Position numbers and translations under genes: made by a program. Positions 1,009 through 22,869 of a stretch of DNA of 32,000 nucleotides are shown one piece after another (position 1 is the first letter of the stretch; every line of letters begins with the position of its first letter). The DNA comes from Pseudomonas aeruginosa. GTDB lineage: Bacteria; Pseudomonadota; Gammaproteobacteria; Pseudomonadales; Pseudomonadaceae. Under the pieces are notes generated by a model, which was given only the letters and a program-made list of their open reading frames with translations, had not been told where the DNA came from and made no database searches. The stretch is taken from positions 660,001-692,000 of the forward strand of contig NZ_LN831024.1 of NCBI RefSeq assembly GCF_001457615.1, given 5' to 3'.

Positions 1009-1323
1009 TCAGGGGGCGATGCTGTCCGCGCCTGGCGGTGCTCGACGGGCGCCTCCGGCTTGGTTCGCGCGCTGGTCGACGTAGGCGGCGAGGTGATCGA
1101 GGGCCACGAACTGCATGGCCTTGTGGCTATCGTCGAGGGTCGTCACCGGCAGGGCGATCCGCCCGCATGCCAGGGCCTTGCTGAAGTTTTCCTTGTTCAG
1201 GTTGCGAAACCAGCGTTCGCGGACCTGCTCCAGCGGCACCAGGACGTCGCCGAAGATGCGGTAGACCAATTCCACGGTTTCCTGGCGTGGAATCGGAGTG
1301 CTAGGGGCGATGGATGGCTGCAT
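1009..1323 (-). CDS. prtN: Pyocin transcriptional activator PrtN (104 aa)
   Basis: The ORF is 104 aa ([47 protein letters not shown]...). The length, sequence and position next to prtR match my memory of PA0610. AGGAGGG lies upstream on the minus strand (complement of 1330-1336). Confidence 0.9.
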
Positions 1324-1358
1324 GGTATTCCCTCCTGCGGCTACACGTCGTTGAGGGA

Positions 1359-1387
1359 AATATAGCTCAGGTTGTTTTCTTGTTCAA
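1359..1387 (-). promoter_or_regulatory. Candidate sigma70 promoter of prtN: TTGAAC, 17-nt spacer, TATATT
   Basis: Read on the minus strand, the -35 TTGAAC is the complement of 1382-1387 and the -10 TATATT is the complement of 1359-1364, with exactly 17 nt between them. It lies 36 nt upstream of the prtN ATG. Both elements overlap the repeated ATAGCT-N3-GTTGT motif. Confidence 0.55.
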
Positions 1388-1401
1388 TAGCTGAAGTTGT
1401 A
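1362..1401 (+). promoter_or_regulatory. Two copies of the motif ATAGCT-N3-GTTGT(T/A), 25 bp apart. Candidate PrtR operator.
   Basis: ATAGCTcagGTTGTT lies at 1362-1376 and ATAGCTgaaGTTGTA at 1387-1401. A third copy, ATAGCTttgGTTGTA, lies at 2251-2265 inside the ptrB promoter. Confidence 0.45.
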
Positions 1402-1422: not shown

Positions 1423-2193
1423 TCACCGCACCAGGGACGGGCCGCGCCGGTGGCGTACGGTGGACCACCAGAAGACCCAACCGATCATGCTGATCTGGCG
1501 GCTGCGCATGTCCTCCGGCGAGTACTCCTCGTCCGGATATTCCTCGCGGTTGAAGCTGCGCAGGCGAATGCCGCCGCCGGGCAGGCGATAGACGAACTTC
1601 ACCCGCAGCATGCCGTCATGTTCGAGGGCGTAGATCTCGCCATCGGTGATATGGGTGGTGGCGGTGTCCACGCCGATGGTGGAGCCATCCATGATCAGCG
1701 GTTCCATGCTGTTGCCGGTGAGTTGGGCGCAGATCGCCGCCGACGGATCGACGCCCGAGGCTCGCAGCGTGGCATAGGAAAAACGCAGCTTGCGCCCCTC
1801 TATCTCGCGTACCGCAGTGCGTCCGGCGCCGGCGGACATCTCCACTTCCTTGTACAGCGGCAGTTCCACTTCGTCTTCGTCCAGCGGTGTGTCGCTGTCC
1901 CACGGATGCAGCGGTTCCAGCACCAATGGGCTGCCATCGGCCACGGACACGGCACTGCGCGCGGCTGGAGCGCCTTCGCCGGTCTGCAGCCAGACCGGCG
2001 AGACGCCCAGGGCCGCCGCGATCTCGATCAGCTTGCGGGTGCTCTGGGCCTTGCCCGAGGTCAGCTTGTGAATGGTGTTCTGCGAAACCCCTGCCGCTTC
2101 GGCGAGGGTTTCCTGCTTCAGGTTGCGCATCGCCATGGCCTGCTTGAGGCGAGCGGCGAAGCTGTCGGGCGGGATCTGGGTGCTCTTGTCCAT
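1423..2193 (-). CDS. prtR: Pyocin repressor PrtR: lambda CI/LexA-like HTH plus S24 peptidase domain (256 aa from the ATG)
   Basis: The N-terminal HTH reads QETLAEAAGVSQNTIHKLTSGK. The C-terminal S24 autoprotease shows GNSMEP and a downstream Lys (LRVKFVY), with a candidate cleavage region SAGAG. The ORF track starts at an upstream TTG (2202). I chose the ATG at 2193 (MDKSTQIPP...), which gives the 256 aa I recall for PA0611. Confidence 0.93.
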   Translation of the reverse strand: MDKSTQIPPDSFAARLKQAMAMRNLKQETLAEAAGVSQNTIHKLTSGKAQSTRKLIEIAAALGVSPVWLQTGEGAPAARSAVSVADGSPLVLEPLHPWDSDTPLDEDEVELPLYKEVEMSAGAGRTAVREIEGRKLRFSYATLRASGVDPSAAICAQLTGNSMEPLIMDGSTIGVDTATTHITDGEIYALEHDGMLRVKFVYRLPGGGIRLRSFNREEYPDEEYSPEDMRSRQISMIGWVFWWSTVRHRRGPSLVR

Positions 2194-2200
2194 GCTCGGC

Positions 2201-2229
2201 AATCTACAGATCGATGGATTTTCTGTAAA
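2201..2229 (-). promoter_or_regulatory. Candidate prtR promoter: TTTACA, 17-nt spacer, TAGATT. The -10 ends only about 7 nt before the ATG, so the mRNA may be leaderless.
   Basis: On the minus strand, the -35 TTTACA is the complement of 2224-2229 and the -10 TAGATT is the complement of 2201-2206, with 17 nt between. No Shine-Dalgarno sequence lies between the -10 and ATG 2193. Confidence 0.4.
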
Positions 2230-2240
2230 GAGCCTAGGTG

Positions 2241-2269
2241 TTGACGATAAATAGCTTTGGTTGTAATTT
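2241..2269 (+). promoter_or_regulatory. Candidate sigma70 promoter for the ptrB/Q-like operon: TTGACG, 17-nt spacer, TAATTT. It overlaps the third operator-like motif.
   Basis: TTGACG lies at 2241-2246 and TAATTT at 2264-2269, with a 17-nt spacer. ATAGCTttgGTTGTA at 2251-2265 covers the spacer and the start of the -10. The promoter sits back-to-back with the candidate prtR promoter, with only 11 bp between the two -35 elements. Confidence 0.55.
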
Positions 2270-2650
2270 CTCTTCCGTCAGAAAGCGGAAGGGGTGGGTT
2301 CCACAACTTCCCACCCGCCTTTCAGAGATTTCACATGGGTGCAGGGACGCACCCGGTTGTCGGCGACCGACGATGCAGGTGCCGACTGCTTGGGTGCCGG
2401 GGCCATGGGAAAGCGCTCCGGCACCTGGAGGGCCGGAGCGCCGTCCATGCAGACGCTCCGTCCCGCTCATTCATTCTGTCGCCGACCTGCTTCAGGTACG
2501 GCGGCGTCGTACAGGGAGTCATTGCCATGTCGCGAGATACGCACTCGCCATTTCCGCGCAGAGGAACGCAGGTCGCCGAACCGGCGCCGCGCATCTGTCA
2601 TGTTCCATCCATTCGGCCGTCGGGCGTCGGGCACGCCAGGGAGGCTTTCC

Positions 2651-2851
2651 ATGGCTGACCTTGCCGATCACGCCAACGAACTGGTCCTGGCTCGCCTCGA
2701 CGGCCTCCTGGCGGCGCGCCCGGCGCTGGCCATCCGCGAGTCCGCGGAAGACTGCGAGGACTGCGGCGAGCCCATTCCCCAGGCGCGCCGCCGGGCGGCA
2801 CCGGGCTGCAGTCGCTGCATCGACTGCCAGGACCGCCACGAGCGCCGTTGA
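2651..2851 (+). CDS. ptrB: PtrB, a TraR/DksA-type C4 zinc-finger protein (66 aa)
   Basis: The sequence is MADLADHANELVLARLDGLLAARPALAIRESAEDCEDCGEPIPQARRRAAPGCSRCIDCQDRHERR, with a CxxC-N17-CxxC motif. GGGAGG lies at 2638-2643, 7 nt before the ATG. The same frame stays open upstream to 2294, but that stretch shows no coding bias. Confidence 0.85.
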   Translation: MADLADHANELVLARLDGLLAARPALAIRESAEDCEDCGEPIPQARRRAAPGCSRCIDCQDRHERR

Positions 2852-2898
2852 ACCGACCTCATGCCGAGCCCTCGCGGGCAGTGAAAGGAGACACGACC

Positions 2899-3258
2899 GT
2901 GATCAAAGCCATCGATGAAATGCTCAAGCTCTGGGCCGAGGAAATGCACGCGCCAGGCAGCAACGGAGGCGGCTACGCCGGCGGCAACCTGATCGCCATG
3001 CTGATCGCCAGCAAGGGCGAGGTGGTCCGCGGCCACCGTGGCAGCCGGGTGATCCTCGACCGTGTGGCGGAGGTCGATCGCCTGGTAAATCGCCTACCCG
3101 AGGAACTGAAGAACGTGGTGGTGGAGCACTATCTCAATCGCGACAGCTTCCCCGAGCAGAAGTACCGCCACTGCGGTTGCAGCCGCAACACCTTCTATCT
3201 GCGCCTGCATGTGGCGCACCAGGGTATCCAGGACGGCCTGCTGCGGCGGGTGGCCTGA
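2899..3258 (+). CDS. Phage antiterminator Q-like protein of the QuuD / phage 21-82 type (PA0613 equivalent, 119 aa from the GTG)
   Basis: AAGGAG at 2885-2890 lies 8 nt before GTG 2899. The track's ATG at 2848 overlaps the ptrB stop and has no SD. The N-terminus reads ...IDEMLKLWAEEMH... and the C-terminus ELKNVVVEHYLNRD...YRHCGCSRNTFYLRLHVAHQGIQDGLL. From memory this resembles the small Q proteins of lambdoid prophages (QuuD: ...LHDLLVDYYV...CCSDGYIGKRLQKAEGIIEGML). The size is similar (119 vs about 127 aa). Confidence 0.7.
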   Translation: MIKAIDEMLKLWAEEMHAPGSNGGGYAGGNLIAMLIASKGEVVRGHRGSRVILDRVAEVDRLVNRLPEELKNVVVEHYLNRDSFPEQKYRHCGCSRNTFYLRLHVAHQGIQDGLLRRVA

Positions 3259-3297
3259 GTTCCTGGACCGGATACCGTGTCCCCCCTGGAATTTTCC

Positions 3298-3322
3298 AAC
3301 CGGCCTTCGAGCCGGTTTTTTT
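3298..3322 (+). terminator. Intrinsic terminator immediately after the Q-like gene
   Basis: The structure is AA-CCGGC (3300-3304), loop CTTCGA, GCCGG (3311-3315), then T7 (3316-3322). It begins 40 nt after the stop codon. Confidence 0.75.
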
Positions 3323-3527
3323 ATGCCTGTCGCCCATGGAGGCGGCGAGCCCCATGCACAGCAGCGGACCCTGCACGCTAGAGGCGGGTTCGGGCTGGCG
3401 GAGCCGTCCTTTTCGTCAGTCGATGCCGGGCTTTTCCATATCGGAAGTGGGTACGCGCTTGCCCGGATGCCTGGCGAAGGTTCCCAGGGCGGTATATCAC
3501 CCTCATATCGTGGTGCGTCTCCCTCCT

Positions 3528-3575
3528 ATTGCAGTGGATTGTCGAGAAGGCATTGCCGGGCTGGGAATCGGGCGG
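3528..3575 (+). promoter_or_regulatory. P-box-like array of ATTG repeats. Candidate PrtN-dependent late promoter region.
   Basis: The array reads ATTGcaGTgg (3528), ATTGtcGAgaaggc (3538), ATTGccGGgctggga (3552), ATCGggcGG (3567). It resembles the published P-box repeat ATTGnn(n)GTnn(n) as I remember it. An A/T-rich stretch (GTAAAAAGTAGTCATTCTTGTAAAGG, 3575-3600) follows and could supply a -10. Confidence 0.5.
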
Positions 3576-3633
3576 TAAAAAGTAGTCATTCTTGTAAAGG
3601 TGCGTCCCCAGGGAGGCACTCGTGAAGCACCGG

Positions 3634-3659
3634 AACCCGGCCCTGGCGCCGGGTTTTTT
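3634..3659 (+). terminator. Intrinsic terminator in the leader between the P-box promoter region and hol
   Basis: The structure is AA-CCCGGC (3636-3641), a 6-nt loop, GCCGGG (3648-3653), then T6 (3654-3659). It lies 58 nt upstream of the hol ATG and downstream of the P-box. Confidence 0.7.
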
Positions 3660-3717
3660 ATTGCCCGGGAAAACGTTCGTGCGGACGTGCCCGGCGCTGC
3701 CTGCCAAGGAGGGACCC

Positions 3718-4071
3718 ATGGGCAACGAACCGCAGACACTGACGGAAATGCCGCTCTGGGTACTGATCCTGCTCGCCGCGCTGGGCGGCGTCAGCGGCGA
3801 GATGTGGCGTGCCGACAAGGCCGGTCTCGGCGGCTGGGCCTTGTTGCGGCGCCTGGCGCTGCGCTCCGGCGCGTCGATTGTCTGCGGCGTGGCGGTGATG
3901 CTGCTGGCATTGGCTTGCGGCGCCGCGCTGCTGTTCGCCGCGGCGCTGGGCAGCCTGACCGCCGCGGCCGGCGCGGAGATCGCAGTCGGTCTCTACGAAC
4001 GCTGGGCCGCCCGGCGCCTGGGGGTTTGCGAGCTGCCCGAGGAACAGTCGGACGACCGTGGCCCGCATTGA
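3718..4071 (+). CDS. hol: Pyocin holin (117 aa)
   Basis: AAGGAGGG at 3706-3713 precedes ATG 3718. The protein is small with hydrophobic segments (PLWVLILLAALGGVSG; IVCGVAVMLLALACGAALLFAAALGSL) and a charged C-terminus. It matches my memory of PA0614. The upstream extension to 3622 overlaps the terminator and was rejected. Confidence 0.85.
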   Translation: MGNEPQTLTEMPLWVLILLAALGGVSGEMWRADKAGLGGWALLRRLALRSGASIVCGVAVMLLALACGAALLFAAALGSLTAAAGAEIAVGLYERWAARRLGVCELPEEQSDDRGPH

Positions 4072-15211: not shown

Positions 15212-16201
15212 GTGCAACCGAGTTTCCGTATCGTTGCCGACGGCACCGACGTCACCCAGCGGCTGAATGACCGCCTGCTCAAGCTGACCCTGCTGGACAA
15301 GCCGGGCATGGAGTCCGACAGCCTGACCTTGAGGATCGACGATCGCGATGGACAGGTGGCCTTACCCAGGCGCGGTGCGGTGCTGGAGGTTCATCTCGGC
15401 TATGCCGGCGAGCCACTGATGCGCATGGGACGCTTTACCGTGGACACCTTGCAGTGGGCTGGTCCGCCGGACTGCCTGACCGTCACTGCCAAGGCCGGCG
15501 ACATGCGCGGCAGTGGCAAGACGATACGCAGCGGAGGTTGGGAGGGCACTACCCTGGCTCAGGTCTGCCGCGATGTTGGCGCACGCAACGGCTGGCGCGT
15601 GGAGTGTCCGTTGCAGGTGGCGATCGCCCGGGTCGACCAGGTCAATGAGTCCGACTACCACTTCGTCACCCGTCTGGCGCGCCAGTACGACTGCACCGCC
15701 AAGCTGGCCGAGGGCATGCTCATGGTGCTGCCGCGACAGAGCGGGCAGAGCGCCACGGGGCGTCGGATCGAACCTTTGGTGTTGGGACGTGCTGACGTCG
15801 GTAGCTTCGACGTTACCTTCGACGACCGCAGCCTGATGAGAACGGTGAAGACCCGCTACCAATTGCCCGGCAGCGGCGAGGTCAAGAGCGTCGAGTTGAA
15901 GAACCCGAAGGCACCGGCTACGGCTATGGGCGAGCATGTCGACCGGCACCTCTATACCAGCCGTGGAGAGGCCGAGCAGGCGGCGAAGGCTCGCCTGGCG
16001 AGCTTCAGCCGCTCCAGCGCCAGTGTGCGCCTGGAACTGCCAGGGCGTGGCGACCTGTTCGCCGAGCGCAGCCTGCTGCTCCAAGGCTTCAAGGCGGGAA
16101 TCGACGGCGAGTTCCTGATCGACTCGGTGGAGCACACCTACAGCTCCAGCGGATGGACCACTGTCGTGCAATGCAACGGCGGCCGAGGCGGCAAGGGGTG
16201 A
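15212..16201 (+). CDS. Tail/baseplate hub protein, P2 gpD-like (329 aa)
   Basis: The GTG start follows GGAG at 15201-15204. FRIVADGTDVTQRLNDRLLKLTLLDKPGMESDSLTLRIDD is the typical gpD late-control/tail protein N-terminus. Confidence 0.9.
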   Translation: MQPSFRIVADGTDVTQRLNDRLLKLTLLDKPGMESDSLTLRIDDRDGQVALPRRGAVLEVHLGYAGEPLMRMGRFTVDTLQWAGPPDCLTVTAKAGDMRGSGKTIRSGGWEGTTLAQVCRDVGARNGWRVECPLQVAIARVDQVNESDYHFVTRLARQYDCTAKLAEGMLMVLPRQSGQSATGRRIEPLVLGRADVGSFDVTFDDRSLMRTVKTRYQLPGSGEVKSVELKNPKAPATAMGEHVDRHLYTSRGEAEQAAKARLASFSRSSASVRLELPGRGDLFAERSLLLQGFKAGIDGEFLIDSVEHTYSSSGWTTVVQCNGGRGGKG

Positions 16202-17222: not shown

Positions 17223-17476
17223 CTCGTCTCCTGCTGGGGCTTTGTCTGCTTTTCGCGGGCTGCGCAGCCTCGCCGACGACACCTCGCCCCGTGCGCGTCG
17301 AGGTTCCCCTGGCAGTGCCCTGCCGTGTACCTGACGTGCGCCCGCCGAGCTGGGCCGGCGCCACGCTGAAGGCCGGCGATTCGCTGCAGGCCAAGGTTCG
17401 CGCATTGCTCGCCGAGCGCCGCCAGCGGCAGGGCTATGAACTCGAATTGCAGGCGGCATTGCGTGCCTGCCGCTAA
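17219..17476 (+). CDS. Rz1-like outer-membrane lipoprotein spanin candidate (85 aa)
   Basis: The start overlaps the preceding stop (ATGA). It has a lipobox (LLFAGC) and a Pro-rich mature region. It is a separate gene, not embedded in the Rz-like gene. Confidence 0.7.
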   Translation: MTRLLLGLCLLFAGCAASPTTPRPVRVEVPLAVPCRVPDVRPPSWAGATLKAGDSLQAKVRALLAERRQRQGYELELQAALRACR

Positions 17477-17483
17477 ACCTTTC

Positions 17484-17513
17484 GGCCGATCCTCTCGGAT
17501 CGGCCTTCCTTCC
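17484..17513 (+). terminator. Hairpin at the end of the pyocin cluster (weak U-tract)
   Basis: The stem is GGCCGATCC (17484-17492), loop TCTC, GGATCGGCC (17497-17505), followed by TTCCTTCC. Confidence 0.45.
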
Positions 17514-17584
17514 GACATCCCGCTGTTGCACCCATCCTCCCCACTGGGCTATGTTCCCCAGCATGGCTCCGTGAGACCGCTATC

Positions 17585-17653
17585 GTGATCCACCTCAGCA
17601 GCATCATCACCTCCCTCATCAAGGCATTCGCCCGTTGGCGCTGGCGCGCCTGA
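17585..17653 (+). CDS. Candidate trpGDC leader peptide with two Trp codons (22 codons, GTG start)
   Basis: The ORF reads GTG ATC CAC ... CGT TGG CGC TGG CGC GCC TGA and encodes (M)IHLSSIITSLIKAFARWRWRA. The Trp codons are at 17636-17638 and 17642-17644. A possible promoter (TTGCAC 17526-17531, 18-nt spacer, TATGTT 17550-17555) lies upstream. The SD is weak, and I could not identify a clean attenuator hairpin. Confidence 0.3.
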   Translation: MIHLSSIITSLIKAFARWRWRA

Positions 17654-17823
17654 CTTCTTCTTCGCCGGCCTGGCCGGTCACGTCTCCCTGCGTCCCCCGT
17701 TTTCCACAGGCATAATGCCGACGATCCACTCCCCCTTCCTCCGCGAGCGCGCCGGGAACCGGGTGTGGCGAAAGCCGGGTGATGCGATTCGCATAAGAAT
17801 GAAATCAAGAGGTTACAGCCAGC

Positions 17824-18429
17824 ATGCTGCTGATGATCGATAACTACGACTCCTTCACCTACAACCTGGTGCAGTACTTCGGCGAACTCAAGGCCGAGGT
17901 CAAGGTGGTGCGCAACGACGAACTGAGCGTGGAACAGATCGAGGCCCTGGCGCCCGAGCGCATCGTCCTTTCCCCCGGTCCCTGCACCCCCAACGAGGCC
18001 GGCGTCTCGCTGGCCGTTATCGAGCGCTTCGCCGGCAAGCTGCCGCTGCTCGGTGTCTGCCTTGGCCATCAGAGCATCGGCCAGGCCTTCGGCGGCGAAG
18101 TGGTGCGGGCGCGGCAGGTGATGCACGGCAAGACCAGCCCGATCCACCACAAGAACCTCGGCGTGTTCGCCGGCCTGGCCAATCCCCTGACGGTGACGCG
18201 CTACCACTCGCTGGTGGTGAAGCGAGAGAGCCTGCCGGAGTGCCTGGAGATCACCGCCTGGACCCAACATGCCGACGGATCGCTCGACGAGATCATGGGT
18301 GTACGCCACAAGACCCTGAATGTCGAGGGCGTGCAGTTCCATCCCGAGTCCATCCTCACCGAGCAGGGCCACGAGTTGCTGGCAAACTTCCTCCGCCAGC
18401 AGGGCGGTGTGCGTGGGGAGGGCAACTGA
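17824..18429 (+). CDS. trpG: Anthranilate synthase component II, glutamine amidotransferase (201 aa)
   Basis: [19 protein letters not shown]...GVCLGHQ...VQFHPES is the class-I GATase triad. AAGAGG lies at 17808-17813. Confidence 0.95.
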
Positions 18430-20328: not shown

Positions 20329-20368
20329 CCCATGAAAAAGGCCGGTTGCGACCGGCCTTTTTCATGGG
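20329..20368. terminator. Bidirectional intrinsic terminator between convergent trpC and vfr
   Basis: A perfect 18-bp inverted repeat: CCCATGAAAAAGGCCGGT (20329-20346), loop TGCG, ACCGGCCTTTTTCATGGG (20351-20368). The T5/A5 runs lie within the arms. Confidence 0.8.
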
Positions 20369-22842: not shown

Positions 22843-22869
22843 AAAAAGCCCGCTTCGAGCGGGCTTTTT
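22843..22869. terminator. Bidirectional intrinsic terminator between convergent speD and coq7
   Basis: The structure is A5 (22843-22847), GCCCGC (22848-22853), loop TTCGA, GCGGGC (22859-22864), T5 (22865-22869). Confidence 0.8.

Follow-up and report, generated by a model that had tools for sequence, protein, structure and literature searches.

PA0613, a 119-aa protein encoded in the R-pyocin locus of Pseudomonas aeruginosa, is judged from its sequence most likely to be a Q-type phage antiterminator that would act on the R-pyocin operon. We analyzed a window of 32,000 nt (assembly GCF_001457615.1, contig NZ_LN831024.1, positions 660,001-692,000, forward strand), and all positions given below are relative to this window. 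The evidence supports a core reading of the locus in which a Q gene controlled by PrtR precedes a late promoter that depends on an activator; a short terminated leader comes next, ahead of the holin and structural genes (Table 1). This reading is supported because the PA0613 superfamily is remotely homologous to QuuD/Q21 over its full length; because PA0613 is predicted to have a sigma-R4-like fold, as reported for Q21; because its homologues hold the Q position in temperate Pseudomonas phages; because the gene and a promoter-leader-terminator element co-occur when searched for in either direction; because the terminator helix carries compensatory changes; because six distant family members with unrelated leaders share the cassette layout; and because two further terminators lie in the path of transcription within the operon. 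We consider it probable that PA0613 is a divergent antiterminator of the Q21/QuuD line, kept in the domesticated R/F-pyocin locus, and that the mechanism proposed below holds as a whole. A first-pass annotation of this DNA had pointed to a promoter, an ORF, terminators, and an ATTG array, and all four features are present at the coordinates in Table 1.

Table 1. Regulatory and coding features of the pyocin locus in the window
Feature	Position	Strand	Basis
prtN, pyocin activator	1009-1323	-	Pfam PyocinActivator, E 2.9e-30
Two operator-like 19-nt motifs (ATAGCTnnGGTTGT core) at the prtN promoter	1357-1400		repeat family D1
prtR, LexA/CI-like repressor (HTH and S24 peptidase)	1423-2202	-	Pfam Peptidase_S24 E 9e-24, HTH_3 E 3e-12
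ptrB-PA0613 promoter, TTGACG, 17 nt, TAATTT	2241-2269	+	sequence; repeat D1; conserved across tailocin-class species
ptrB, DksA/TraR-type zinc-finger protein, co-transcribed with PA0613	2651-2851	+	Pfam zf-dskA_traR E 1.3e-13
PA0613, 119 aa, proposed Q21/QuuD-like antiterminator	2899-3258	+	profile-profile match; AF2 model
Terminator T1, end of the ptrB-PA0613 transcript	3298-3322	+	7-bp stem, 7 T, -11.2 kcal/mol
P box (ATTG, ATTG, ATTG, ATCG repeats), presumed PrtN site, overlaps -35	3528-3575	+	unique ATTG cluster
Late promoter, -35 TTGCCG 3553-3558, 17-nt spacer, -10 TAAAAA 3576-3581	3553-3581	+	conserved spacing
Conserved start region GTAGTCATTCTTGTAAAGGTGCG, predicted +1 A3588; candidate loading/pausing site	3582-3604	+	invariant positions
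Leader hairpin 1	3599-3620	+	predicted in displayed leader variants
Leader terminator T2, proposed first antitermination target	3634-3659	+	8-10-bp stem, 6 T, -16.4 kcal/mol
hol (PA0614), first late gene	3718-4071	+	Pfam Phage_holin_3_5 E 4.6e-63
Internal terminator T3	9606-9629	+	8-bp perfect stem and T5
Internal terminator T4, gap before the gene starting at GTG 15212	15171-15193	+	8-bp perfect stem and T5

In the accepted scheme, which recent papers retain, pyocins are induced through RecA, PrtR cleavage, PrtN, and the P box. The first-pass annotation had noted that this scheme assigns no role to PA0613, and our literature search agreed, returning no paper that gives PA0613 a function and no experiment on it. 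The PrtR/PrtN/P-box regulon itself is readily recognized in the window from the PyocinActivator and S24/HTH Pfam matches and from an ATTG cluster ahead of the pyocin genes. Two copies of a 19-nt operator-like motif lie at the prtN promoter (1357-1375 and 1382-1400), and a third occupies the spacer of the ptrB-PA0613 promoter (2246-2264). This promoter had been described as near-consensus and operator-bearing. The motif is indeed there, but the description of the promoter was too strong: its -35 hexamer (2241-2246) matches 5/6 consensus positions, its -10 hexamer (2264-2269) is weak with 3/6, and a consensus promoter scan did not list it. Promoter and motif are kept together in P. paraeruginosa, nitroreducens, citronellolis, and delhiensis loci, and a ptrB homologue precedes the Q-like gene in 117/128 sequences. 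H2O2 raises PA0612 and PA0613 along with the pyocin genes, with a 2.3-fold increase in PA0613 mRNA.

Downstream of PA0613, the ATTG array that had been likened to a P box proved to be unique, as it is the sole spot with three ATTG in 30 nt on the plus strand of the 32-kb window (59 ATTG in total). The late promoter that it overlaps is weak, matching 8/12 consensus positions and falling below detection by the consensus scan. Its spacing is conserved in about 100 distinct sequences, in which the -10 reads only TAAAAA or TATAAA. Conservation extends over a block from about -12 to +17, and within the start region C3587, A3588, T3592, A3598, and T3601 are invariant among 84 distinct sequences; the start-region pattern matches the window once, vs 0 expected. 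Searching by eye for a Q-binding element (a direct repeat of 8-bp subsites) gave none consistent across lineages, and a similar search for a pause element gave no clear -10-like hexamer (A at position 2, T at position 6) common to all of them. In prophage-class loci, the inverted repeat GGTGGCA-N15-TGCCACC stands in place of the P box, with leader and Q-like gene retained.

The leader RNA is predicted to form two hairpins. The inner stem of hairpin 1 varies in sequence by lineage with its complementarity kept, according to per-sequence folding. The second hairpin is terminator T2, which had been recognized in the first reading of the DNA and withstood closer inspection. It ends 58 nt before the hol ATG (3718) and has a strong stem followed by six T, and its 43 distinct variants have predicted energies of -10 to -21 kcal/mol. 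Of the cells counted in the helix, 97.8% are paired, compensatory changes occur in 3 pairs, and 0/500 shuffles scored as high. RNAalifold on a MAFFT leader alignment misplaced the terminator and missed hairpin 1; per-sequence folding and a count over a hand-specified helix were used instead. An Rfam search of 2200-3800 returned no leader family, only sub-threshold matches at chance level. We also considered an attenuator in which GGUGC of hairpin 1 would pair with GCGCC of the terminator and dropped it, because covariation is absent in the variants GAGCC and GUGCC.

Weak promoter, conserved start region, hairpin, and terminator together make up a leader element of ~100 nt, which we found downstream of the PA0613 homologue in 123/128 sequences, the window included. 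The five exceptions comprise three truncated homologues, one split by an insertion, and one that has decayed, such that every intact homologue has the leader. Conversely, when phage contigs were anchored on the leader, a Q-like gene lay upstream in 100/100. Gene and element stay together in tailocin loci and in prophages of Pseudomonas. Much of this co-occurrence comes from one related phage lineage, and the counts are not independent events. A strict plus-strand terminator lies 300-900 (or 1700-1900) nt past the gene in 113/127 loci. In phages U5 and LPPA36, the PA0613 homologue is the last early-right gene and is followed by the holin and terminase. The consensus prophage leader places the holin start about 25 nt past the terminator, and with so short a distance, read-through would be the only way for transcription to reach hol in many prophages. 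In each of six distant family members, whose leaders are unrelated, one or more terminators follow the gene; in four of them the gap also holds a sigma-70-like promoter, and the next gene begins 12-25 nt past a terminator. F-pyocin strains carry a second copy of the P box, leader, and terminator. The lambdoid late-gene order proposed by the first-pass annotation (Q gene, promoter, promoter-proximal terminator, lysis and morphogenesis genes) is thus seen in the window, in U5 and LPPA36, in both directions of the leader search, and in the six distant lineages.

To place these terminators against background, we scored perfect stems of >=7 bp followed by >=5 T. These strict criteria gave 8 terminators in the 32-kb window vs 0.03 expected from shuffles; a lax scan did not rise above chance (2 found, 2.3 expected). 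T1, which had been reported as a strong terminator after the Q-like ORF, is real, but it falls outside the conserved cassette because only 13/127 related loci have such a terminator <=120 nt from the gene. T3 occupies a 42-nt gap between a tail-fibre assembly gene and the sheath gene, with no room for a promoter before the ATG at 9649. Both T3 and T4 are strong and lie within the R-pyocin operon in gaps that have no promoter, an arrangement that would call for processive antitermination.

We found that the relationship of PA0613 to Q proteins is visible only through profiles. The start codon of the gene is the GTG at 2899, which an AAGGAG site precedes, and its homologues all begin with MIK or MIR. 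Databases label it 'PA0613 family' (NCBIfam), and the related PHROG 4300 is listed as of unknown function; cluster names were sought for distant family members, and none was named. The HMM search against PF06530 suggested by the first-pass annotation was negative, for a direct Pfam hmmscan of PA0613 (E<=1) gave no PF06530 match, and this sets the protein apart from Q21/QuuD. Pfam, NCBIfam, and PDB sequence searches with PA0613 likewise gave no Q match, and Pfam detected no AlpA-family (Phage_AlpA) domain in it. Within the wider family, 4/115 members match PF06530 directly (best E 3.3e-4). A profile of the 115 representatives (A2) aligned with the QuuD family, whose namesake is a PF06530 member and Q21 homologue, at an hhalign probability of 94% (E 1.4e-7) over 113 full-length columns, and with a single QuuD sequence at 76% (E 2.3e-5). 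Narrower profiles weaken the match, to 27% (E 7e-4) for a 33-sequence core and 8% for 11 close homologues, and the link of PA0613 to Q is accordingly transitive, via distant intermediates. With the A2 HMM, scores of 33-38 bits were reached by the best QuuD-like proteins, and all 117 were recovered at E<=10; ECF sigma-4 scored 23.7 bits and Q21 itself 14.5 bits. The resemblance to Q proposed for this ORF therefore stands by profile-profile comparison and is missed by a direct Pfam scan. The accompanying label of a phage 21-82 class was wrong, since the Q21 paper sets Q82 as a family without significant sequence similarity to the Q21 family.

The predicted structure of PA0613 (AF2 model, pLDDT 82) has an ECF sigma-R4-like C-terminal domain. 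Residues 50-118 superpose on the ECF sigma-R4 structures 3hug and 2h27 with TM 0.70-0.76 and an rmsd of 1.5-2.2 A. These two structures are the ones named in the Q21 paper as the structural relatives of Q21, whose fold is also ECF sigma-R4-like, and the low-confidence segment 21-48 of the PA0613 model falls at the position of the mobile torus of Q21. In the suggested comparison with Q21, the C-terminal domain of the model resembles the fold reported for that protein, but the Q21 chain itself (6p18_Q) came only at rank 42 with TM 0.51. ECF sigma-R4 domains and anonymous small sigma-like phage proteins outrank it, and for this reason the fold does not tell an antiterminator from an activator.

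The same structural matches leave room for another explanation, in which PA0613 is a small sigma-R4-like late activator that aids initiation rather than elongation, the terminators being leaky or otherwise handled. Activator-type regulators of the DUF1492/LtrC, RinA, and ArpU kind are found before terminase genes in Gram-positive phages. PA0613 has weak Pfam matches to Sigma70_r4_2 (E 0.1, 12.7 bits, cut-off 25.7) and DUF1492 (E 0.12, 13.0 bits, cut-off 21.5), which are matched by 13/115 and 5/115 family members, respectively; sigma-R4 domains and sigma-like phage proteins head the structural matches in both PDB and BFVD, and a late promoter as weak as this one plausibly needs help. Such an activator would, however, leave unexplained why a strong terminator is kept between the promoter and the first late gene in every intact locus and in six lineages with unrelated leaders, and how polymerase passes T3 and T4. 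Moreover, the full-length QuuD alignment covers an N-terminal helix and linker that sigma-R4 lacks, the A2 HMM places QuuD proteins about 14 bits over sigma-4, and P. aeruginosa already has PrtN as the activator of the late promoter. We consider this explanation unlikely, although it is the best of the alternatives.

Still less likely, in our view, is that the terminators are passive attenuators or insulators that do no more than reduce basal, lethal expression and give way to sheer promoter strength when PrtN is present, with PA0613 in another role, for instance acting with PtrB on host genes such as those of type III secretion. PtrB, which shares an operon with PA0613, reportedly suppresses type III secretion after DNA damage, a finding ascribed to Wu and Jin in 2005. 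In current reviews and research articles, PrtR and PrtN alone account for pyocin induction, and a published PA14 transposon screen for loss of R-pyocin killing, whose matches include prtN and R-pyocin genes, does not mention PA14_07980. We regard the silence of this screen on PA14_07980 as uninformative rather than contrary to a Q function. Passive attenuation is hard to reconcile with the textbook strength of T2 (-16 kcal/mol, U6), as little transcription would be expected to get past three terminators of this kind in a row. The gene-leader linkage also occurs in phages lacking any type III secretion context, and the Q-position cassette recurs among distant family members. Separately, over-expression of PA0613 was considered as a killer of cluster-less cells and rejected; the deletion PA14_07970-08300 most likely removes the gene.

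AlpA-family proteins are excisionase-like DNA binders, and phage PrtN homologues (50-66% identical, encoded in the early-left arm of related phages) are annotated as 'excisionase'. That PrtN itself is the antiterminator, bound at the promoter and riding with polymerase like AlpA while PA0613 is accessory, would fit these annotations, the overlap of the P box with the -35 near polymerase, and the AlpA precedent of a small promoter-bound antiterminator in the same species, but it is very improbable, given that PrtN has no sequence match to AlpA (solved chains included) or to any solved antiterminator, so that kinship with AlpA was rejected, that S-type pyocin genes reportedly respond to PrtN via P boxes as ordinary activated promoters (work attributed to Matsui in 1993), and that prophage-class loci swap the P box for another element and keep the leader and Q-like gene.

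If PA0613 is a Q-type antiterminator, DNA damage would lead to PrtR cleavage and derepress both prtN and ptrB-PA0613. PrtN on the P box would permit initiation at the weak late promoter near 3588, and the sigma-R4-like helix-turn-helix of PA0613 would bind the DNA in or close to the conserved block that surrounds the -10 and the start site, loading the protein onto the early elongation complex. There its flexible N-terminal segment (residues about 18-48) could fill the RNA exit channel like the Q21 torus, and the modified polymerase would ignore T2, T3, and T4 to produce one long transcript carrying the holin, tail, and lysis genes. In the absence of PA0613, only a leader RNA of about 70 nt would be made before transcription stops. 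Both the antitermination activity itself and a two-input logic requiring PrtN and Q are what we infer from this arrangement. A broader version, in which the R/F-pyocin locus is an AND gate derived from a temperate siphophage, with initiation by PrtN and Q21-like processive antitermination by PA0613, possibly with help from the co-conserved TraR-like PtrB on the same polymerase, and in which only a polymerase that has received both inputs gets past the leader terminator and those within the operon, such that the whole cluster is one Q-modified unit, seems to us evenly balanced. This arrangement would explain why internal promoters are missing, and could make the all-or-none, terminal expression of single cells sharper.

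Comparison with known systems places PA0613 nearest to Q21/QuuD (PF06530). Both are small (119 aa for PA0613, 127 aa for QuuD), and PA0613 is likewise predicted to combine a helix at the N terminus with a flexible linker and a sigma-R4-like helix-turn-helix. As in the lambdoid Q cassette, downstream of the last early gene come a promoter, a short leader with an intrinsic terminator, and the lysis and morphogenesis genes. The pyocin cassette differs in that its late promoter is weak with an activator site (the P box) rather than strong and constitutive, in the P. aeruginosa terminator between the Q-like gene and the late promoter, and in its Pseudomonas host, where it drives a tailocin. The DUF1492/LtrC, RinA, and ArpU proteins are similar in being small, sigma-R4-like, and encoded just before packaging or lysis genes, although the DUF1492 matches of PA0613 are weak; they are described as activators, and the descriptions include no conserved leader terminator.

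The first-pass annotation had cited AlpR/AlpA as a precedent for antitermination in P. aeruginosa, and published work bears this out: the small gene product AlpA lets polymerase bypass terminators ahead of lysis genes. AlpR/AlpA and the pyocin locus share the species, the trigger, and a LexA-like repressor over a small gene. AlpA, however, belongs to another protein family, without sequence homology to Q according to the AlpA paper, and the pyocin locus has the extra activator PrtN. PA0613 would make pyocin release the second DNA-damage lysis pathway of P. aeruginosa run by antitermination, after AlpA. Two-tier control of a domesticated phage-like particle has been shown experimentally for the Caulobacter GTA cluster, in which GafY and GafZ act as a promoter activator and an antiterminator through in-cluster terminators; the pyocin locus would be similar. 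GafZ is reported to resemble no known antiterminator in sequence or structure; it acts together with NusA, NusG, and NusE, and IHF is needed too.

If PA0613 is an antiterminator, the PrtR/PrtN model, now 30 years old, would gain a second regulator and may be incomplete as it stands. A second positive regulator in the locus would change how prtN-only experiments and reporter fusions containing or omitting the leader are read, and would bear on heterogeneous expression and on strains engineered for R-pyocin antimicrobials. The 'PA0613 family' and PHROG 4300 gain a concrete, testable function hypothesis, the Q21 line would extend to Pseudomonas phages, and late operons can be searched for with the conserved leader of about 100 nt.

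We found that the window contains the R-pyocin locus of P. aeruginosa, bounded by trpE and trpG; the F-pyocin genes are absent in this strain, and trpG starts directly after the lysis genes (17476-17824 region). A first-pass annotation of the sequence had described a PrtR-controlled gene for a Q-like antiterminator, followed by a terminator, a P box and a second terminator before the holin gene, and all four features are present (see table). The ATTG array of the P box is unique in the window in packing three ATTG into 30 nt. T1 and T2, the terminators after the PA0613 gene and before hol, are two of eight intrinsic terminators in the 32-kb window that satisfy strict criteria (a perfect stem of at least 7 bp and at least 5 T), compared with 0.03 expected in shuffled sequences. 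The ptrB promoter lies where it had been proposed and has a good -35, but it is not near-consensus, as its -10 is weak and a consensus scan did not list it.

Features of the R-pyocin control region and operon (window positions)
Feature	Position	Strand	Remark
trpE	end at 823		
prtN	1009-1323	-	
prtR	1423-2202	-	
ptrB promoter	2241-2269		TTGACG, 17 nt, TAATTT
ptrB	2651-2851	+	DksA/TraR zinc-finger protein
PA0613	2899-3258	+	119-aa ORF
Terminator T1	3298-3322		
P box	3528-3575		ATTG array
Late promoter -35	3553-3558	+	TTGCCG; 17-nt spacer next
Late promoter -10	3576-3581	+	TAAAAA; TATAAA in some lineages
Invariant CA	3587-3588	+	predicted start
Conserved block	to 3604	+	through GGTGCG
Hairpin 1	3599-3620	+	inner stem varies by lineage, complementarity kept
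C/A-rich linker	after hairpin 1	+	followed by T2
Terminator T2	3634-3659	+	
hol (holin)	3718-4071	+	P2-like tail genes next
Terminator T3	9606-9629	+	42-nt gap between tail-fibre assembly gene and sheath gene (9649)
Terminator T4	15171-15193	+	gap ahead of gene starting at 15212
trpG	start 17824		

The spacer of the ptrB promoter carries a 19-nt operator-like motif with a ATAGCTnnGGTTGT core, two further copies of which both lie at the prtN promoter. Because this motif is shared by the two promoters, and because it is conserved along with the ptrB promoter in other species having the same locus, direct control of ptrB-PA0613 by PrtR would fit. The mRNAs of PA0612 and PA0613 go up alongside those of the pyocin genes upon oxidative DNA damage. 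The 5' leader of ptrB is unusually long (~390 nt, 2270-2650). Rfam gives an RsmW-like match at 2330-2430 that stays below threshold, scoring 25 bits where the gathering score is 52. The leader may represent an RNA element or what is left of phage cro/cII genes.

A stretch of roughly 100 nt ahead of a phage holin gene matches window positions 3574-3662 almost base for base, while the PA0613-like proteins are 45% identical and the remaining gap is unrelated. An nhmmer model located this leader on the same strand downstream of a PA0613 homologue in 123 of 128 sequences (45 genome loci, 80 viral loci, two phage records and the window), at a distance of 280-650 nt, or 1,758 nt in one locus. The other five comprise three truncated sequences, one leader split by an insertion and one decayed locus. 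In locus L100 (2440-2950), a ~400-nt insertion after hairpin 1 splits the leader, and the terminator is kept abutting hol. Conversely, all 100 viral contigs with the leader pattern and sufficient upstream DNA have a family member ending 405-436 nt upstream.

The leader terminator occurs in 43 distinct sequence variants, every one of them stable (-10 to -21 kcal/mol). Among 84 distinct sequences of its helix, 97.8% of cells pair and three pairs show compensatory double changes; shuffled and slid controls came nowhere near. In the prophage leader consensus, the U tract and the holin start codon are ~25 nt apart, a distance into which no promoter fits, so that read-through of the terminator is the sole route to the late genes. 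The gaps holding T3 and T4 are likewise too short to accommodate a promoter upstream of the following gene. T2, T3 and T4, all of them strong, must be passed by a polymerase travelling from the P-box promoter to the lysis genes, which would be the task of a processive antiterminator. F-pyocin strains have a second P box, leader and covarying terminator stem after the lysis genes (L052 4330-4500, L053, L066). Beyond the pyocin cluster, 3' of the trp genes, the window also holds two perfect bidirectional terminators (20337-20360 and 22845-22867), which have 10-bp stems bordered by runs of A and T.

A direct Pfam search with PA0613 gave no match to the Q family (PF06530), and its only matches, Sigma70_r4_2 and DUF1492, were sub-threshold. 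The curated NCBI model is named 'PA0613 family', and PHROG 4300 has no assigned function. An exhaustive profile search widened the family to 145 representatives; among 115 of these, 13 match sigma-70 region 4 and four match PF06530. The 115-sequence profile was compared with QuuD, a Q21 homologue from E. coli prophage DLP12 that clearly belongs to PF06530. Its match reached 76% with the QuuD sequence alone (E 2.3e-5, spanning PA0613 residues 5-117) and 94% with a 117-sequence QuuD alignment (E 1.4e-7, 113 columns), and as an HMM it recovered 117/117 QuuD-like proteins at E<=10, the top ones at 33-38 bits. Against the same profile, ECF sigma-4 scored 23.7 bits and Q21 14.5 bits. Narrower profiles gave weaker matches to QuuD (27% for the 33 nearest representatives, 8% for 11 close homologues). 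By these comparisons, the link from PA0613 to QuuD and Q21 is transitive. Q21/QuuD is the closest family, and the proposed membership of PA0613 holds at the profile-profile and cassette levels but not at that of the Pfam HMM; inspection of the lineages by eye yielded no consistent Q-binding or pause element. One family sequence, P0022, is 70% identical to PA0613 with many residues changed to C, Y, W, F or V, a pattern more suggestive of damage or deamination in a sequencing read than of a genuine allele.

In the AlphaFold model of PA0613 (pLDDT 82), residues 3-17 form a helix and residues 50-118 a confident four-helix domain, with a glycine-rich stretch of low confidence (21-48) between them. 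The four-helix domain superposes on ECF sigma-R4 (3hug, 2h27) at 1.5-2.2 Å. The structural paper on Q21 relates its fold to ECF sigma-R4, citing 2H27, and builds the exit-channel torus from the mobile H1-H2 linker, H2 and the H2-H3 linker. Since Q21 ranks 42nd among structures matching the model, which also resembles many anonymous sigma-like proteins of phages, the predicted fold is consistent with Q21 without being specific to it.

A 45%-identical homologue closes the early right arm of three temperate P. aeruginosa phages, U5, LPPA36 and Haddon. It comes after a CI/PrtR-like repressor, a CII-like gene, a DksA-like zinc finger and a primase, and is followed by a 570-nt gap, a holin-like gene, terminase and portal. 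This position is the Q slot of lambdoid phages. Tailocin-class loci carry prtN-prtR, with ptrB-PA0613-leader-hol on the opposite strand, and a P box; prophage-class loci share this right arm, with an added primase, and have an inverted repeat, GGTGGCA-N15-TGCCACC, in place of the P box. The repeat overlaps the late promoter -35 (for example in L002, 7735-7765, and L030). It reads GTGGCG...CGCCAC in one lineage, so its arms change together. Many GGGACAG/CTGTCCC and GTAGGAC repeats lie between the phage Q-like gene and the late leader (L002 7380-7660; L100 2080-2350), where they might serve in packaging or as a replication site.

Six distant members of the family, all metagenomic (P0084, P0042, P0059, P0106, P0065, P0046), have leaders without sequence similarity to the Pseudomonas leader. 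All six have one to three strong intrinsic terminators downstream, and in four the gap contains a recognisable sigma-70-type promoter and a terminator that ends 12-25 nt short of the gene that follows. The best-resolved member precedes holin, lysozyme, HNH and terminase small and large subunit genes. That the layout recurs with dissimilar leaders speaks for a functional arrangement and against mere inheritance of synteny.

We consider it probable that the late operon is controlled by derepression, activation and antitermination in turn. PrtR cleavage would derepress prtN and ptrB-PA0613, and PrtN would activate the weak late promoter. Beside the observed anatomy, homology and gene-leader co-occurrence, we infer that PA0613 would bind DNA near the conserved -10 and start block and load onto the early elongation complex, making polymerase read through T2, T3 and T4. 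That PA0613 is instead a sigma-like late activator without antitermination seems unlikely, and it is somewhat less likely still that the terminators are passive attenuators and PA0613 has another role; both leave the conserved in-path terminators unexplained. PrtN itself as the antiterminator is the least probable, having no sequence support.

AlpR/AlpA of the same species works in the same mode through a protein unrelated to PA0613. In Caulobacter, GafY/GafZ is a proven activator and antiterminator control of a domesticated phage-like particle, and is a precedent for the scheme proposed here. Full-text literature searches found no paper assigning a function to PA0613, and current papers continue to present pyocin control in terms of PrtR, PrtN and the P box. 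On our reading, the pyocin locus has probably retained a divergent, unannotated Q21-like cassette of Pseudomonas phages whose late promoter depends on an activator.

At the protein level, PrtN shares 50-66% identity with the product of a phage early-left-arm gene annotated as excisionase (1009-1323 versus L002 295-612); in U5/LPPA36-type phages this gene adjoins an 'integrase' gene. Given this kinship, the pyocin control region has the appearance of a phage immunity region that has collapsed, and its two inputs, PrtN and PA0613, may both be ancestral. In 117 of the 128 sequences, the arm that carries the Q-like gene also has, upstream of it, a TraR/DksA-like zinc-finger gene (ptrB). As TraR/DksA-like proteins bind the polymerase secondary channel, PtrB and PA0613 may act on the same enzyme. 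In ~40 prophage-class loci, strict + strand intrinsic terminators cluster in the early right arm, just ahead of the ptrB-like and primase genes and 2.2-2.5 kb upstream of the Q-like gene, which hints at a second, early antitermination step.
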